This document shows positions 1 through 6,191 of a stretch of DNA of 64,000 nucleotides, one piece after another. The first letter of the stretch is position 1. Each line of letters starts with the position of its first letter. The notes under the pieces are model-generated. The model ran no database searches, was not told the DNA's origin, and saw only the letters and a list, made by a program, of their open reading frames with translations. The DNA lies in the NCBI RefSeq assembly GCF_003018235.1, contig NZ_CP027437.1; one strand, given 5' to 3'. The position numbers and the translations under genes are program-made. The stretch comes from Escherichia coli (GTDB taxonomy: Bacteria > Pseudomonadota > Gammaproteobacteria > Enterobacterales > Enterobacteriaceae).

Positions 1-17
1 GGGGTAAGATTTCCGGC

Positions 18-521
18 TCATGATTCGATGATTTTCAGAAACGGGTTAGTGGCTTTCTTCTGCCCCGCCAGGCCAATCAGACGCTGGCGGCTGCTGGGGT
101 CGAGTCCGAGCATTGCCCCCGTGCTGCTCATCTCGGACTCCTGTTCTTTTTTGGCGGTCAGCTCCGGGTTTTTGACCATACCGCCCATTGCACCGGTGAT
201 GGTGTTGCCCTGGCTGGCAATATTCTTCACGGCACGTCGCCAGAACTCATAGGCCACGCACCACCGCTCAAGTACCGCCAGGTCAGTCACGCACAACAGG
301 CCCTGACCGCAGAGTTCTTTGGTTGTCAGTTGCCACATGATCGTGGCGAGAGGGAGATCTTCTTCAGCGAACCACTCCGGTGGCTCAACACCTTTGATGG
401 GCGTAAAAACAGGTTCATCTTTGTTCAGGGCTCGCTTGCCGGGGTTTCCGGCCAGCGCCTTGCGCGCCGTTGGCTTGGGGCGACGCCCGGAACGCCCCGC
501 CGTTCCAGCCATATGCGGCAC
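18..521 (-). CDS. phage terminase small subunit (P27-type, by recall)
   Basis: 167-aa ORF immediately downstream of an HNH endonuclease gene in the late operon; family assignment from memory of similar proteins. Confidence 0.5.
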   Translation of the reverse strand: MPHMAGTAGRSGRRPKPTARKALAGNPGKRALNKDEPVFTPIKGVEPPEWFAEEDLPLATIMWQLTTKELCGQGLLCVTDLAVLERWCVAYEFWRRAVKNIASQGNTITGAMGGMVKNPELTAKKEQESEMSSTGAMLGLDPSSRQRLIGLAGQKKATNPFLKIIES

Positions 522-637
522 TCCTGGTTAAATTTCATTTTTCGCGGGTATAAAAAAACGATGGGGCGGGCAGTCCGGAAGACATCAGGTCACAGGGATT
601 TGACCCGCCCCTCCCCTCTGGCAGTGGGAACTGGTTC

Positions 638-988
638 TTACTTCAGCCATTCACGGGCCGTCTTCGCCTTGTGGCACGGCCAGCACAGACTCTGCAGATT
701 ACTGTCGGCATCAGTGCCGCCATGTGCTTTAGGGATGATGTGGTCAACGGTTTTCGCCTCACGCACCACACCGGCACGCAGACATAACTGACACAGGCCT
801 TTGTCACGCTTCAGGACACGCACGCGGATAACATCCCACTTCGAACCATAACCGCGCTGATGACGAGATTGTCCTGGCTTGTATTGCTTCCAGCCTTCGC
901 TTTTATGGCTTTCACAATAGCCTGACGGGTCAGTAGTGGTATTGCGGCAACCGCGAACGCGGCAGGCTTTTGGTGTTCGTGGCGGCAT
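638..988 (-). CDS. phage HNH endonuclease
   Basis: 116-aa product with CxxC ... DHIIP ... N ... CxxCH pattern typical of HNH nucleases; usual position next to terminase. Confidence 0.7.
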   Translation of the reverse strand: MPPRTPKACRVRGCRNTTTDPSGYCESHKSEGWKQYKPGQSRHQRGYGSKWDVIRVRVLKRDKGLCQLCLRAGVVREAKTVDHIIPKAHGGTDADSNLQSLCWPCHKAKTAREWLK

Positions 989-1040
989 ATCTACTCCAAT
1001 GAAAAAGCTACCGGTTGATAACCGATGGCTTTGATTGTTC

Positions 1041-1235
1041 TTACCTGTTTTGAAGAATCTCCCGCTTTCTTACAATACATTCCGTCGTTTCTCTATAGCT
1101 GCACACGTGCTCCCGTGAACATTGGTATGTGTGCAATTCGCCGATGGCATCACCGATACCAGTCAGCACATCTTTTTCATGCAGAATGGTCACCTGCAGA
1201 CGGTTGGTTGGGCAGATAATGTTTGAATAGTTCAT
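1041..1235 (-). CDS. hypothetical phage protein (64 aa)
   Basis: ATG at internal Met of track ORF 1041..1412, preceded by AAGGAG about 8 nt upstream; no recognisable family. Confidence 0.3.
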   Translation of the reverse strand: MNYSNIICPTNRLQVTILHEKDVLTGIGDAIGELHTYQCSREHVCSYRETTECIVRKREILQNR

Positions 1236-1605
1236 TTTGGTGTCTCCTTTGCTTTCGAGACACCAAAATCCCATCACGACACGTTTACCGCCACAAACAT
1301 TATTGCAGGCACCCATTGAATACCTGCGGGACTGATAAACACAGCCTCCTCCATACGTAGTGAAACCATTTTCATATCTCCAGTAATGAATTCTTTGAAG
1401 AGTCGCAATCAATACGACTCACTAATGGGGAGGCATGTCCAACGCGTTGGACGAGTTGCCTACTTGATTTAGATGACACTTTAGAAGGACAGAATGCCTT
1501 CCTCACTCAAATAACATCAATTAAGGAGGTTCAACATGCTTCGTTCCAAAAGTCAGTTGACTGTAATTATTACTACGTCACCTTATGCCGAAGACCTTTT
1601 CCGCT

Positions 1606-1881
1606 TCACTTTGAGCCTGATTCACTTCTACCTGACCGGCTCGCCTCTATCCTTCTGATCCCCGCTTTATCCAGATTGCACTGCCCTAGCGCCGACAACA
1701 GACTGACATTCAAATCTAGACTACCCGCATAAGTCAGCGGTTCAGAAATGGCTGGTTGCGGGGTTTCAGCGGTCAGACTCGCCGGTAACGGTATAGCCGG
1801 AACTGGCACGTAAACTGTCCGCGAACTTTCGCAACCGGTCAGCAGCGGCAGCAGGCACAGGGCGTACAGCACAATCATCAT
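1606..1881 (-). CDS. Rz1-like outer-membrane spanin lipoprotein (overlapping Rz in another frame)
   Basis: Internal start MMIVLYALCLLPLLTGC gives signal peptide plus lipobox LTGC, followed by a proline-rich segment; overlaps 3' end of the Rz-like gene out of frame. Confidence 0.55.
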   Translation of the reverse strand: MMIVLYALCLLPLLTGCESSRTVYVPVPAIPLPASLTAETPQPAISEPLTYAGSLDLNVSLLSALGQCNLDKAGIRRIEASRSGRSESGSK

Positions 1882-2158
1882 CCGCAACAGCCACTTTGAT
1901 ATCAGCCTGGGTTCTCTGTGACTCCAGTGCGATCTGCTGTTTTGCATGCTGGTTAGCCTCCAGAACTGTATTGACGATTTGCAGTGATTGCAGGACGTTA
2001 TTGGTAATAGCGGTTGCCGATTCGGCATTTTGTACAGCCTCATCAGCACGTTTCTTTTCGCGCTGGTATTTGCTGTGGTAGTGGTTAGCTGACCAGACGA
2101 GAGAACCGAATAAAGTCAGGAGGAAAGCAGAAATAACCAGCTTATAGCGAAGTTTCAT
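1766..2158 (-). CDS. Rz-like inner-membrane spanin
   Basis: N-terminal TM segment followed by predicted coiled coil, directly downstream of the endolysin; track ORF starts at TTG 2191, ATG at 2158 preferred. Confidence 0.6.
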   Translation of the reverse strand: MKLRYKLVISAFLLTLFGSLVWSANHYHSKYQREKKRADEAVQNAESATAITNNVLQSLQIVNTVLEANQHAKQQIALESQRTQADIKVAVADDDCAVRPVPAAAADRLRKFADSLRASSGYTVTGESDR

Positions 2159-2618
2159 TAACCACCCCGCCAGCTTCTTTGAATTTGGCAATCAGACTAT
2201 CGATCTTGTGTTCATACTGACCGTAGCCAGCACCGGGCAATGAGGCCCAAATATTGCTGCAACGATCAATAGCCTGACGAATATCACCCCGATCAATCAG
2301 CGGCAGCGCGCCGCGTTCTTTAATCTGCTGTAACGCCACCGCATCCTGGCTTTTCGGGGAGAAATCTTTCAGTCCAAGCTGTTTACGGTAGGCGTCCCAC
2401 CATTTCGACAGCAGTTGATAACGCCCGGCGGCGGTGGATTTCAGTTTCGGGTTAAGCGTAACCAGCTTACGTGGATGATCGGAGTAATCAGTAAGCAGTT
2501 CGCCACCAACGATAACGTCATAACCATGATTTCTGGTCTTCTGCCATCCGTTATCAGTTCCTTCTGACCACGCCAGCATATCGAGGAAGGCTTTACGCTG
2601 AGGATTAAGGTTTTGCAT
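2142..2618 (-). CDS. R: endolysin, lambda R-type lytic transglycosylase
   Basis: 158-aa product near-identical over most of its length to recalled lambda R (QRKAFLDMLAWSEGTDNG...GDIRQAIDRCSNIWASLPGAGYGQ). Confidence 0.9.
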   Translation of the reverse strand: MQNLNPQRKAFLDMLAWSEGTDNGWQKTRNHGYDVIVGGELLTDYSDHPRKLVTLNPKLKSTAAGRYQLLSKWWDAYRKQLGLKDFSPKSQDAVALQQIKERGALPLIDRGDIRQAIDRCSNIWASLPGAGYGQYEHKIDSLIAKFKEAGGVVNETSL

Positions 2619-2922
2619 TTTTCACCCCTGTCAGTCGTTCCCAGAAGTAAGTCAGCGCAACTGAACCCATTGCACCGCTGATCCCTGCTGTGGCGAGAAT
2701 CATGTAAATGCTAAATCCGCTTTCGATACTTATCAGGCCACCAATAACACCGGTAAAACCCGATACCACTATCTGAGCCAGAGCATTAATCCAGCTCCAT
2801 GTTGCTTTGCTCTGCTTCACATCAATCAGGTAACGGACAAGCCCGCCCCAGCACGCGAAGATCAGCAGAACGAGCCAGGACATCCCGGCAATGCTCTCTT
2901 TTTCGTGCATATGAATAGCCAT
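2605..2922 (-). CDS. holin (not lambda S family)
   Basis: About 105 aa with hydrophobic TM segments, dual-Met N-terminus MAIHMHEK, immediately upstream of and overlapping the endolysin gene. Confidence 0.55.
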   Translation of the reverse strand: MAIHMHEKESIAGMSWLVLLIFACWGGLVRYLIDVKQSKATWSWINALAQIVVSGFTGVIGGLISIESGFSIYMILATAGISGAMGSVALTYFWERLTGVKNAKP

Positions 2923-2951
2923 GATTTTGCCGCCGACGGATGATCGGGACT

Positions 2952-3449
2952 CTAAATGATAGGGAACAGACTCACGGGGTAATTTAACGACAAAGCACGG
3001 AGTTGAAGATCCCCACAAGCCTGGAATAAAAAAGCCAGCGACAGGCTGGCAATGTGAGGGTAACGCAAAGTGCTTAGAAACAAAAAAAGGCCGCCATCGG
3101 CGACCTTCGAGGTATCTAGCGTGCTGGATACTTTCAGCTTCGCCTTCAATTCAGCGTTGATTTCTTTCAGGCGATCAACATCGTTTTTAAGTTTTTCAAT
3201 GTCTTGCCCTTTATTATCAAGGTCGCGCTGAAGACCTTTAATAATTTCTGTTTGGGCCGCCTGTACTTCTCGTGTCGTCTGGAGAGACTTATCAATATCA
3301 TCAACTTGGTTAATCAAGCGTGTACCGAAAAAGCCTACAACTAACATAGTTATCCCAACCATAAAGTTGAGAACCCAGACTTTTGTTCCGGAAGCAGTGT
3401 TTGGAGTTTCGTCGATAAAGTGCACCTTATGCCAGTTAAAGTTACCCAA
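2952..3449 (-). CDS. hypothetical membrane/coiled-coil protein; 3' part of ORF probably non-coding
   Basis: TTG-initiated track ORF; internal ATG precedes a TM segment and coiled coil; C-terminal about 45 codons overlie two hairpin+T-tract terminators. Confidence 0.25.
   Translation of the reverse strand: MGNFNWHKVHFIDETPNTASGTKVWVLNFMVGITMLVVGFFGTRLINQVDDIDKSLQTTREVQAAQTEIIKGLQRDLDNKGQDIEKLKNDVDRLKEINAELKAKLKVSSTLDTSKVADGGLFLFLSTLRYPHIASLSLAFLFQACGDLQLRALSLNYPVSLFPII
3030..3107 (-). terminator. two tandem rho-independent terminators in the Q-to-holin interval (tR'-like)
   Basis: On minus strand: hairpin GCCAGCCTGTCGCTGGC followed by TTTTTTATT, and hairpin GGTCGCCGATGGCGGCC followed by TTTTTTTGTTT. 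Confidence 0.45.
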
Positions 3450-3908
3450 CGTCTGCGCAGATCGTTAGATTCGGCAACATTGTAACTGGATAAGGAATAG
3501 AAAACCTTGGAATTTTAAGAAGAAACTGATTGATCGATTATTTAACGAGCGAACACATCCATACACCCCAGACGGGTACTACGACAAAGGCCATGAAATA
3601 AGTAACTTTTGCTTGAATGTTTTGCATTTCGCTTCCTTAGCAGTCCGATAAGTACTGTCTGCTCATCCAACCTAACGAATGTAGATCAGAATGACAAGTC
3701 TTTCGCGCTAATTTCAATTTGATATCTGTTCGTAAACATGATGGCGCGAAATATTACGCATGAAGTGCTTCTACATCAACATAAAAGTTACTTTTTTTGT
3801 GTTCACAGCATGTAAAGTAAAAGCCCCGCACGATGGCGAGGCTGTTAATTCTTTGTCGACCAACAAAGCTATGGCGACGATATCAGATTTACATGAAATA
3901 TAAGCGTT

Positions 3909-4598
3909 TCAGTTCGGTTTTGCAAGACTTACGTGCAAACTTGTCGCCTTTTGTTGTGAACGTGATCGCGTTACTGAGATAAGCGCACCGCTATCGAGTC
4001 GCATAAAGCAGCTACGCATTGCCAACCAGTGAGGCAGGTATGTCTCTGTCCAGGTGGATTTCGCCACGCCAACCAGTTCCGCCAGCTTCTGGTATTCGTA
4101 GGCATCTTTCCCGACCAACCCTGCTTTGACATCCTGCGCTGCCAGCCATATCAGCTTCTTCAGGCGCTCCATGGTCTTGCCTGCCACCCTCTTCGCGCCG
4201 AGATACCCCCTGAATTCAGACCACGCCCACTGGGTGATCGCCACCTGGTATTCAAAGCTGATGTTTTCACTGTAACTCCACAGCAACCACGCTTTCTGAT
4301 GTTCTTCGAGAGACAGAACCGCGCGGCGCCATGAAGATGTTGAGAACTCAACCTGGCTGACCAGTGCAATGGATGAACCTTTTGCGTACGACTGCTTACC
4401 GGAAATCGGCGGATTATCCAGCGTAATCATCTTGCCCGTTACCTCATCCAGAATGCGCGGCTTCTTTCGTTTATATGTACCAGTATCAAATTGTGCATGC
4501 TCCAGCCAGGCTTCAAGCTGGCCTTTCGTTGCTCCGCTCAAATCAGCAGTAGCCACAATGAGTTGCTCGCGGACATACTGTAAATATTGGGTATTCAT
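3909..4598 (-). CDS. putative late-gene antiterminator Q-like protein
   Basis: 229-aa ORF occupying the Q position (downstream of rusA-ylcG, upstream of lysis genes); start overlaps ylcG stop (ATGA); family assignment tentative. Confidence 0.45.
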   Translation of the reverse strand: MNTQYLQYVREQLIVATADLSGATKGQLEAWLEHAQFDTGTYKRKKPRILDEVTGKMITLDNPPISGKQSYAKGSSIALVSQVEFSTSSWRRAVLSLEEHQKAWLLWSYSENISFEYQVAITQWAWSEFRGYLGAKRVAGKTMERLKKLIWLAAQDVKAGLVGKDAYEYQKLAELVGVAKSTWTETYLPHWLAMRSCFMRLDSGALISVTRSRSQQKATSLHVSLAKPN

Positions 4599-4735
4599 GC
4601 GGCAGCTCCTTTCAGTGTTTTGGCGTAATTCTTCAGTATCCGGTAATCGGTCAAAACAGAACCGGGGAAACGATATAAGCGCAGGCGCATCCAGCGGTGG
4701 CGAAGACGTTCTGCCATATAAGACTCAAACATCAT
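4595..4735 (-). CDS. ylcG: small DUF3950-type protein YlcG
   Basis: 46-codon ORF ([46 protein letters not shown]) coupled by ATGA overlaps to rusA and Q; matches recalled K-12 YlcG. Confidence 0.6.
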
Positions 4736-5094
4736 TCATTCCCCAGTTCGGTGATGGTCAGCTCCAGCTTCCCACCTTTGGTAACGGGCATCTTCACAAC
4801 ACGGTAATCAACGACCTGAACATCATCCAGCCAGAAACCTGCTTTGGTGAGTGCGTCAAAAGCGGCTTTTTGCAGATTATCCAGGTCACGGCGACGGCGA
4901 TCCGGCATGTGGCACTCAATACGGATTTTCACAGGCATAGCCAGGCCGATATCCAGCATTGCGTTTTTAATGATTTGGGCGACGTTATCGCGGTATGCCT
5001 GCCCCTCTGCGCTGACGTGCGTGCGCCCGCGATTATGGCGGTAATAGCGATTATTGCTCGGAGGCCAGGGTAATGTGATGCTGTAGGTATTCAC
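4732..5094 (-). CDS. rusA: RusA Holliday junction resolvase
   Basis: 120-aa product near-identical to recalled K-12 RusA ([38 protein letters not shown]...). Confidence 0.9.
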
Positions 5095-5381
5095 GCCTTA
5101 ATAACCCCCTCTTTCAGCCAGATAACCTGTGTTCTCGCCATACCTTCCAGCGCGCATTCTTTTGCATATCCAGCGTCAACAAAATGCGTGCGACGGTCGA
5201 TCTCATCGTGACAGGCAGAACATGCAATGGTGGCAATCAGGTCTGGCGGTTTGGTACCGGTGCCACACAATCCAGCCAGCCGGATATGTGCCAGTACAGA
5301 CGTTTCAGGGTTGCCATTACATATGCCAGGGATTCTTACCTGGCATTCCCGACCACGCGCTGCTTTTCTCAAATCAGCCAT
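5091..5381 (-). CDS. ybcO: DUF1364 prophage protein YbcO
   Basis: Internal ATG ([19 protein letters not shown]...) gives 96-aa product matching recalled K-12 YbcO. Confidence 0.8.
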
Positions 5382-5544
5382 GATTCCTCCTTGCTGCCAG
5401 TCGCAACCATTTTTTATCAACCAGGCTGGCGGTATACCCTAGCAGCGTTGGTATTTCGGATGGCTTCAGCTCAGGCTTACGCTTACGACGATTTGGTACT
5501 CTGTAGATGTGTCCGTTCATGACCCGAATAAGCGGTGTAGTCAT
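5374..5544 (-). CDS. ninE: NinE
   Basis: 56-aa product [28 protein letters not shown]... matches recalled K-12 NinE; TAATG overlap with ybcN. Confidence 0.8.
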   Translation of the reverse strand: MTTPLIRVMNGHIYRVPNRRKRKPELKPSEIPTLLGYTASLVDKKWLRLAARRNHG

Positions 5545-5999
5545 TACGCCTCCTGCTTGTCGCGCAGCAGCTGGAACTCGCAGCTCTGTGGAATAGTCAG
5601 GTGGCAACCAATATTCATCGCCCAGGCTTCAACCTTACACAGGAAGACATACATCTCTCCGGTATCAAGATCGGAGGTATGGCGTAACGACTGGATAGTG
5701 GTGATATCACCGGTTACGACATCAACCAGGTCTTTGGTTTCATAACCGAGATATGTGTGTTTGAGAGCATCTTTTACCCAAGCTGGAGTGGCGAACGTTT
5801 TACCCCTGCTGATGAGGTATTCACTGATTTCGCTGTACCACATGTGGCTGAGTGCATTCTGGGAAAGACTGCGTCTCTCGCGCCACGGTTTAAGCACCAT
5901 GCGAAAGCATTTGCCGTCCTCCAGATAAGGCTGGATCTGCCGACCGATAGCGGTGAAGTTACCGCGATGCAATTTGATACCATCTTGTGGGAGGTTCAC
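5544..5999 (-). CDS. ybcN: DUF1367 prophage protein YbcN
   Basis: 151-aa product matches recalled K-12 YbcN over full length. Confidence 0.85.
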
Positions 6000-6191
6000 G
6001 CTTCACCTCCGCAGAGATCAAACGCTGGATGCAAAATATCGCAGGTGCATTTCTGCATCTGTGAATGGAGAAGAGAGGTTGGATTGTATGTGCGCATAAA
6101 CGTCCCCGTTTAGCGCAGAAGTCACCGGAGGAGTTCAAACTCTGGTGACTTAATTATGGCAAGTTGATTGTTGAAAATCAATTTAGTGGAT

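Follow-up and report, generated by a model that had tools for sequence, protein, structure and literature searches.

Which polymerase would read a small gene that lies on the strand opposite to all of its neighbours in the late operon of a prophage? The question is raised by a 40-codon open reading frame (ORF) at 1536..1658 (+) in a stretch of 64,000 nucleotides (nt) of Escherichia coli DNA (contig NZ_CP027437.1), the whole of which is called the window here. The ORF is translated as MLRSKSQLTVIITTSPYAEDLFRFTLSLIHFYLTGSPLSF, and its ATG is preceded, after a 5-nt spacer (TCAAC), by the Shine-Dalgarno (SD) sequence AAGGAGGT at 1523-1530 (+). A first-pass annotation of this DNA had given the ORF as 1537..1659, with a strong SD and a gap of 6 nt; the translation is identical and the SD is present, and the coordinates and the gap are corrected here. 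The same annotation had noted that the ORF overlaps the 3' end of an Rz1-like gene. This is indeed the case: the antisense overlap comprises the last 53 nt of lysC (1606..1881 (-)), which is identified as an Rz1-like o-spanin gene by the annotation of Shigella phage SfIV and by that of an E. coli locus 99.7% identical to this one (PGAP).

Within the window alone the ORF and its SD do not go beyond chance, because AAGGAGGT occurs once and 0.91 copies are expected from shuffles. It is the conservation, the pattern of substitutions and the promoter-like sites upstream that take the ORF beyond chance. Judging from the sequence, we consider it rather probable that 1410-1658 (+) is an expression cassette that would be read by the single-subunit RNA polymerase (RNAP) of an invading T7-family (Autographiviridae) phage, and that its role is probably defensive. 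Two tandem promoter-like sites, P1 (T7-type) and P2 (SP6/K1E-type), each followed by a 5' stem-loop, would feed the SD, which has the consensus sequence, and the 40-codon ORF.

Promoter-like sites of T7-family phages upstream of the ORF

Position weight matrices (PWMs) were made from annotated or motif-defined promoters of the phages T7, K11, SP6, K1E and K1F; the T7 matrix came from 17 annotated T7 promoters, whose consensus over -17..+6 is TAATACGACTCACTATAGGGAGA. P1 (CAATACGACTCACTAATGGGGAG) occupies 1410..1432 (+), corresponding to -17..+6 with the predicted +1 at G1427, and scores 26.2 bits on the T7 matrix. Genuine T7 promoters score 26.0-39.2 bits (22.0-38.7 bits in a leave-one-out analysis). 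The second-best site on both strands of the 64-kb window reaches 7.7 bits, and the background is -36 +/- 9.7 bits. By sequence match P1 is therefore of the T7 (Teseptimavirus) type, with a score inside the range of T7's own promoters. A search of the window with the 23-nt T7 consensus, allowing 3 mismatches, gave no match; PWM scoring was used because P1 differs ungapped from the consensus at 6 of 23 positions, three of them within +4..+6. Each deviation occurs in some natural T7 promoter (C at -17 in phi1.1A, A at -2 in phi1.5, phi1.6 and phi3.8, T at -1 in phi2.5), and the pair of A at -2 and T at -1 that is seen in P1 occurs in none of the single T7 promoters. The common variant of P1 in the relatives described below, CAATACAACTCACTAATGGAGAG, has an A at -11, as does T7's own phiOL (TAATACAACTCACTATAAGGAGA). 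K1F was considered as the cognate phage of this common E. coli variant and rejected; K1F promoters read CTAAACTATCACTATAGG, and the nearest natural site is T7 phiOL.

P2 (ATTTAGATGACACTTTAGAAGGA) lies at 1467..1489 (+) with the predicted +1 at G1484, and like P1 it is directed toward the ORF. It is the best site of the window on the SP6 matrix (26.8 bits; second-best site 11.4; genuine promoters 12.7-34.7 in leave-one-out) as well as on the K1E matrix (23.9 bits; second-best site 16.3; genuine promoters 21.0-36.8 in leave-one-out). These scores are within the range of genuine promoters of the SP6/K1E (Molineuxvirinae) type, for which the sequences are ATTTAGGTGACACTATAGAAG (SP6) and ATTTACTGGACACTATAGAAG (K1E). 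The copy in the window deviates at -3 (T) and at -11 (A).

Both predicted transcripts have a 5' stem-loop. The one behind P1, CATGTCCAA/CGCG/TTGGACGAG at 1434..1455 (+), is backed by covariation: among 12 sequence variants 92.6% of the cells are paired, compensatory double changes occur in 3 pairs, and the covariation score was matched by none of 500 shuffles. The U.G intermediates are valid on the + strand RNA only, and folding of the common variant predicts a 13-bp stem after P1. The hairpin behind P2 (GAAGG-ACAGAATG-CCTTC, 1484..1501 (+)) starts at +1. It is nearly invariant, with a diversity (pi) of 0.03 over 54 unique sequences, is also predicted by folding, and resembles the 5' stem-loops that follow T7 and K11 promoters.

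Cassettes in other prophages and their promoter arrays

The first-pass annotation had named conservation in related prophages as a check on the ORF, and such conservation is found. Region 1380-1700 of the window was matched in 625 of 5,426 complete E. coli genomes. About 20 of these matches are near-identical; about 590, at 84-86% identity, have another architecture in which the block lies between the HNH gene and + strand iss/bor, without an annotated lysC. The block also occurs in Shigella phage SfIV and in Klebsiella prophages. Since the same block is present in a different architecture that has no annotated lysC, it is a mobile unit which brings a 3' remnant of lysC along, and the cassette is strain-variable accessory DNA. 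Alignments and the diversity profile define a conserved 3' flank that travels with the cassette (1659..1735 (+)); in the window this flank is 3' coding sequence of lysC. In the roughly 590 genomes, among them the ST131-type JJ1887 and O157:H7, an unannotated remnant of lysC, its last ~130 nt, is left upstream of iss/bor (~4225-4345 in the related loci L002 and L003, equal to window 1606-1735). The spanins proper of these JJ1887- and O157:H7-type carriers are of the lambda Rz/Rz1 type.

We collected 144 cassettes from E. coli, Shigella and Klebsiella prophages, 96 of them of the E. coli type. The ORF, the SD and the ATG are kept in all 144, with an ORF length of 37-40 codons throughout, and the ORF is intact at 40 amino acids (aa) in 96/96 cassettes of the E. 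coli type. A scan with its anchor outside the ORF led to essentially the same loci, 71 of 73. The diversity of 54 unique IMG/VR sequences has minima at 1476-1550 and 1596-1670, which are separated by a variable patch at 1551-1595; the stretch with the SD (1521-1535) has a pi of 0.009, the lowest in the whole block. P2 is ATTTACTGGACACTATAGAAGGA in 60 of the 96 E. coli-type cassettes, an exact K1E consensus that scores 36.9 bits, the maximum. A separate lineage (L115-L118) carries the exact SP6 consensus ATTTAGGTGACACTATAGAAGGA at P2 together with AATTACGACTCACTATTGGGAAA at P1, and is missing from the complete E. coli genomes. Two scans of 100,044 species-representative genomes, one with a pattern for the C-terminus of the ORF and one with a P1...P2 pattern, gave no match. 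Three phage records (ON470600, ON470607 and ON470621; vB_EcoS-569R6 and others) label the region of the cassette 'protein of unknown function DUF4347', which looks like a spurious call across non-coding promoter DNA.

The Klebsiella relatives have a 38-aa ORF that was found on hundreds of contigs at the same junction of lysis and packaging genes and that has only the C-terminal LSLIHFYLTGSPLSF in common with the E. coli type. Upstream of it is an array of three promoter types: a variable T7-group site (AATTAGGGCCCACTATAGAGACC, AATTAGGTAGCACTATAGGGAGG, TATTAAGACTCACTATTAGGAAG or TAATGCGACTCACTATAGGAGAC), the sequence (C/T)AATAGTGGCGAGTATAGAA, and TAATGTTAC(A/C)(C/G)GAGTA followed by GG. The K11-type site AATTAGGGCCCACTATAGAGACC scores 28.8 bits on the K11 matrix, on which genuine promoters reach 25.5-38.7 bits in leave-one-out. 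The second type occurs in 3-5 copies, on one strand and upstream of genes, in contigs of ~45 kb that encode a K1E-like RNAP and capsid, DNA polymerase and portal proteins; this makes it the promoter of an SP6-like phage group. For the third type there is a biochemical reference, since the strong 16-nt promoters TAATGTTACAGGAGTA and TGATGTTACAGGAGTA of the KP34 RNAP were determined by in vitro transcription and 5'-RACE (rapid amplification of cDNA ends; PMC6834552). The Klebsiella sequence TAATGTTACACGAGTA is identical to TAATGTTACAGGAGTA at 15 of 16 positions; 41 cassettes carry such a KP34-type (Drulisvirus) site with one mismatch and 1 carries it exactly, and some have the TGATG variant, as in the second strong promoter of KP34. 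The site is absent from the window and from the E. coli-type cassettes, where the nearest sequences have 5-7 mismatches. A candidate for a fourth Klebsiella promoter, TAAGTTACACAA(G/T)AGAA, is not claimed, as no phage contig with multiple copies was found.

The promoter types follow the host, with T7 and K1E/SP6 types in E. coli and Shigella, and K11/T7, Klebsiella-SP6-like and KP34 types in Klebsiella. When a site was counted if it scored at least 20 bits, or matched KP34 with at most 2 mismatches, on the sense strand within 300 nt upstream, all 144 cassettes had at least one such site, and none was found on either strand in 2.43 Mb of flanks from the same loci. We give about an even chance to the general statement that prophages of E. 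coli, Shigella and Klebsiella may carry an array of promoters from the T7-family phages of their host, copied or converged, which is wired to a membrane-active peptide. With such wiring the invader's own RNAP would trigger abortive infection.

Some lineages (L189 at ~1010-1200, L124, L138 and L144) have two SP6-like promoters in tandem and hybrid cores, such as AATTACTGGCGAGTATAGAAGAG with one K1E-like and one Klebsiella-SP6-like part, as if promoters had been shuffled within the arrays. A perfect palindrome, TTGTCTCTTATAAGAGACAA, is located just before the first promoter of the Klebsiella arrays (L097 at ~3790-3812, with equivalents elsewhere), and in E. coli the P1 hairpin with its U-rich tract was flagged as terminator-like. 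Both elements may keep host read-through out of the cassette. The mini-ORF is followed in some Klebsiella prophages by a 125-aa + strand gene without a Pfam match (4510-4887 in L096 and L098; 3938-4312 in L124); read-through by a phage RNAP would co-transcribe it.

The encoded peptide and competing explanations

The allele counts separate the two halves of the ORF. Codons 24-40, which overlap lysC, have 11 synonymous and 4 non-synonymous alleles (p = 8e-4), and the shared C-terminus including the Klebsiella copies has 18 and 9 (p = 9e-5). The variable sites in the overlap fall on codon position 3 of the + frame and on position 2 of lysC (R>K, S>N, G>D), so the changes are silent in the ORF and alter the product of lysC. 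From these counts the C-terminal half appears to be constrained as protein in the + frame, and the N-terminal half to be free or diversifying. Seen from the other strand, R>K, S>N, G>D and S>L changes are tolerated in the tail of lysC (1606-1658 (-), the last ~17 codons), with synonymous change in the antisense frame; the LysC tail thus seems less constrained than the mini-ORF that overlaps it.

The payloads differ in sequence. Those of the Klebsiella type fall into at least 4 sequence types (MLKISLLSTIVNHKITFAVIYFLLSLIHFYLTGSPLSF, MLEVLNSLAPFAPAINAIVILICSIIAKYYGVLPLPF, MSHIEIIHLIDSYVLLATHIISLIIVCRKLIADLSRRS and MHKPLIKLFLIKLLFSEFFQRFTLSLAHYYLTGYPLYF), all of 37-38 aa, and in every payload type the 3' end of the ORF overlaps the 3' end of lysC or its remnant. 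The payloads are mostly strongly hydrophobic, with a best 17-aa Kyte-Doolittle window of up to 2.45. Given a payload of 37-40 aa that is usually of this kind, it is plausible that the product is a toxin. The peptide of the window matches no Pfam or PHROG family and no defence-system model in PADLOC; no homologue was found in Autographiviridae by tblastn, and a profile search of 1.84 billion representatives found it in 7 clusters only.

These observations are consistent with the following mechanism. The cassette would be silent in the lysogen, because host RNAP has no recognisable promoter there. On infection by a T7-like or SP6-like phage the phage polymerase would be made, and the peptide would then be produced fast and in quantity. 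Being small and usually hydrophobic, it could harm the inner membrane or stop the infection in some other way before any progeny are made. The most likely purpose would be the defence of the lysogen population by exclusion or abortive infection, that is, a natural 'triggered-suicide' or promoter-trap device. Transcription by a phage RNAP in vivo, toxicity or inhibition by the peptide, and protection of the cells are all predictions of this scheme.

Several points weigh against the scheme. Codons 2-23 have 4 synonymous and 27 non-synonymous alleles and thus show no purifying selection, and because its 3' end lies in every case over a lysC 3' end or remnant, the composition of the ORF could in part merely reflect that gene. 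The peptide of the window itself is weakly hydrophobic, with a grand average of hydropathy (GRAVY) of 0.45 and a best 17-aa window of 1.05. The conserved -6 position is a G in 22 of the 96 P1 copies. The cassette of the window is not the best example of its kind: its P2 has a T at -3 that is absent from all sampled SP6 and K1E promoters, and a cognate phage with multiple copies was not found; when a lytic phage with the P2 core GGTGACACTTTAGAAG of the window and SfIV was sought, only single chance matches in unrelated coding DNA appeared. T7 degrades host DNA within minutes, which limits the time for expression. Finally, there is no clear terminator 3' of the ORF, so T7-family RNAPs would read past it and might have another effect downstream.

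This last point leads to the first alternative, which we consider unlikely: phage RNAPs would read a genuine promoter array but make the peptide only incidentally, and the functional output would be the RNA or the act of transcription. Candidate outputs would be read-through into iss/bor or distant + strand prophage genes, antisense RNA on the lysis cassette, or interference with the polymerase of the invader. The missing terminator fits this explanation, and so do the presence of iss as the next + strand gene in the ~590 JJ1887/O157-type genomes, the unconstrained N-terminal half and the variation of the payload among lineages. However, the SD and the small ORF are the sole downstream element that all architectures have in common, while the content beyond the ORF varies (lysC antisense, iss, the 125-aa gene or - strand genes). 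The SD and the ATG are, in addition, the most conserved bases of the block, and the retention of 37-40 codons in 144/144 cassettes and the purifying selection on the C-terminal + frame also speak for the peptide.

The second alternative, which the first-pass annotation had raised, is that of a moron or type I toxin gene that is expressed in the lysogen by host RNAP, the resemblance to phage promoters being irrelevant. Morons such as bor/iss are classically found where this ORF lies, between the lysis and the packaging genes and on the other strand, and a small hydrophobic ORF with a strong SD to which the late transcript is antisense resembles type I toxins. The search for an upstream promoter that the same annotation had proposed gave a different answer, namely the T7- and SP6/K1E-type sites P1 and P2 in place of a host promoter. 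Scans for sigma-70 promoters in 1000-2300 of the window, in 3900-4800 of L002 and in L097 gave no sense-strand promoter ahead of the ORF in the vicinity of the cassette. An Rfam scan of 1-6000 left the block without a match to any family, and no antitoxin-like small RNA (sRNA) was found. Neither the sigma-70 promoter, sRNA or family match of a type I toxin-antitoxin system nor the sigma-70-type promoter and post-ORF terminator of a lambdoid moron was found. Moreover, promoter-grade matches to five phage RNAP specificities that are absent from the 2.43 Mb of flanks are not coincidental, and we regard lysogen expression as distinctly improbable. Since phage-RNAP promoters precede the ORF, and no phage-RNAP-like ORF was seen among the long ORFs of the window, expression is expected in T7-family superinfection and not in the resting lysogen.

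A relic without function is highly improbable; the block would then be a fragment of DNA from a T7-like or SP6-like phage that was captured by recombination and hitch-hikes at a junction of lambdoid modules. Lambdoid genomes are mosaic, the block changes its architecture together with the lysC remnant, and core promoter positions are altered in some copies, all of which would suit a relic. However, a single array can combine promoters of as many as three Autographiviridae subfamilies, more than one donor phage could have contributed, and the peptide has no homologue in that family. A relic is also at odds with promoters, SD and ATG as the least variable parts, with the covariation of the hairpin and the selection on the + frame, and with the occurrence of the block in 625 of the 5,426 genomes. 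Scarcely credible, lastly, is a chance ORF in an antisense frame that is open only through constraint on lysC: in its favour are the 0.9 copies of AAGGAGGT expected per window, the 17 of 40 codons inside lysC and the 3' overlap in every lineage, but the variation in the overlap is the opposite of what constraint on lysC predicts, the block is equally conserved in the ~590 genomes without annotated lysC at the site, lysC does not extend over 23 of the codons, the SD or the promoters, and the conservation in 144/144 cassettes with purifying selection on the C-terminal half leads us to reject the suggestion of chance in the first-pass annotation.

Comparison with known systems and genomic setting

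The expression cassette proposed here resembles the promoter-leader-gene units of the T7 group (T7 phi10/gene 10 and phi17/gene 17, K11 phi9) and the pET/T7 system derived from them. Common features are a 23-bp phage-RNAP promoter, a stable 5' stem-loop at the start of the transcript, a near-consensus SD (TAAGGAGGT in the T7 phi17 leader) and a short gap to the ATG. Unlike these units, the cassette lies in a lambdoid prophage, which is temperate and lacks a polymerase of this kind, its array joins promoters of different, mutually orthogonal polymerases, and its product is a peptide of 37-40 aa without a homologue in Autographiviridae.

Phage-triggered suicide, which is reportedly the original work of Djordjevic and Klaenhammer, is similar in that a lethal or inhibitory payload would stay silent until the transcription apparatus of the invader activates it. 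In its engineered form in lactic acid bacteria (dairy lactococci) a phage-inducible promoter is combined with a lethal gene (PMC3530524). Those systems are man-made and use a promoter that depends on a phage transcription factor, together with a restriction cassette, whereas the present cassette is natural, with arrayed promoters for single-subunit RNAPs and a tiny peptide. The type I toxins Hok, TisB, Ldr, Ibs and ZorO are likewise very small hydrophobic peptides; their genes have a strong ribosome-binding site and are overlapped by an antisense transcript, for the cassette that of the late operon. In contrast to them, no host promoter, dedicated antitoxin sRNA or Rfam match was found at the cassette, there is no sequence similarity, and control would be exerted by promoter specificity instead of antisense RNA.

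The lambdoid morons bor and iss share the niche between the lysis and packaging modules and the opposite strand, and the cassette is directly upstream of iss in most E. coli carriers. Morons have their own sigma-70 promoter and a terminator and are expressed in the lysogen; neither of these sequence features was found at the cassette. Cross-activation between phage elements is known from the transactivation of late promoters by P2 and P4 and from satellites that respond to helper factors. There, too, a mobile element has regulatory sites that answer the transcription machinery of another virus. These systems, however, use transcription factors that act on host RNAP and they serve piracy, while the cassette carries whole promoters for a foreign RNAP and its aim is likely exclusion. 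No published description of such a cassette was found in the full-text literature; single sites may already have been reported.

The anti-phage systems known so far respond to phage proteins, to nucleic acids or to host damage. Sensing via the invader's own promoters would, if true, be a different principle, which needs no sensor protein and is specific by construction. The promoter set would then be an evolvable and modular sensor of the phages that are guarded against, and the lytic phages against which a strain is protected could be predicted simply from the sequence of its array. This would be relevant to phage therapy of E. coli (O157, ST131-type) and Klebsiella pneumoniae, where Autographiviridae are favoured. 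It would also explain why promoter and RNAP specificity have diversified so rapidly in the T7 family, and would add a family of effector peptides of 37-40 aa that gene callers mostly miss.

The surroundings of the ORF are the late operon of an HK97/SfIV-like lambdoid prophage, whose genes are likewise annotated at the 99.7% identical E. coli locus and in SfIV. All of its genes are on the - strand, as the first-pass annotation had stated: terS (18..521), an HNH endonuclease gene (638..988), a 64-aa ORF (1041..1235), lysC, Rz (DUF2570; 1766..2158), an endolysin gene (2142..2618) and a holin gene. In the window and in PapM-32-1 the hypothetical 64-aa gene (MNYSNIICPTNRLQ...) separates the HNH gene from the cassette; SfIV and ECOR29 lack it, and there the HNH gene and the cassette are directly adjacent. 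The only match in the Rfam scan was isrJ, an Hfq-binding sRNA, which was matched over its full length (RF01393) at 3820-3893 (-) with 64.9 bits (gathering score 37; E = 1e-10). This sRNA is located between the side of the antiterminator Q and the holin.

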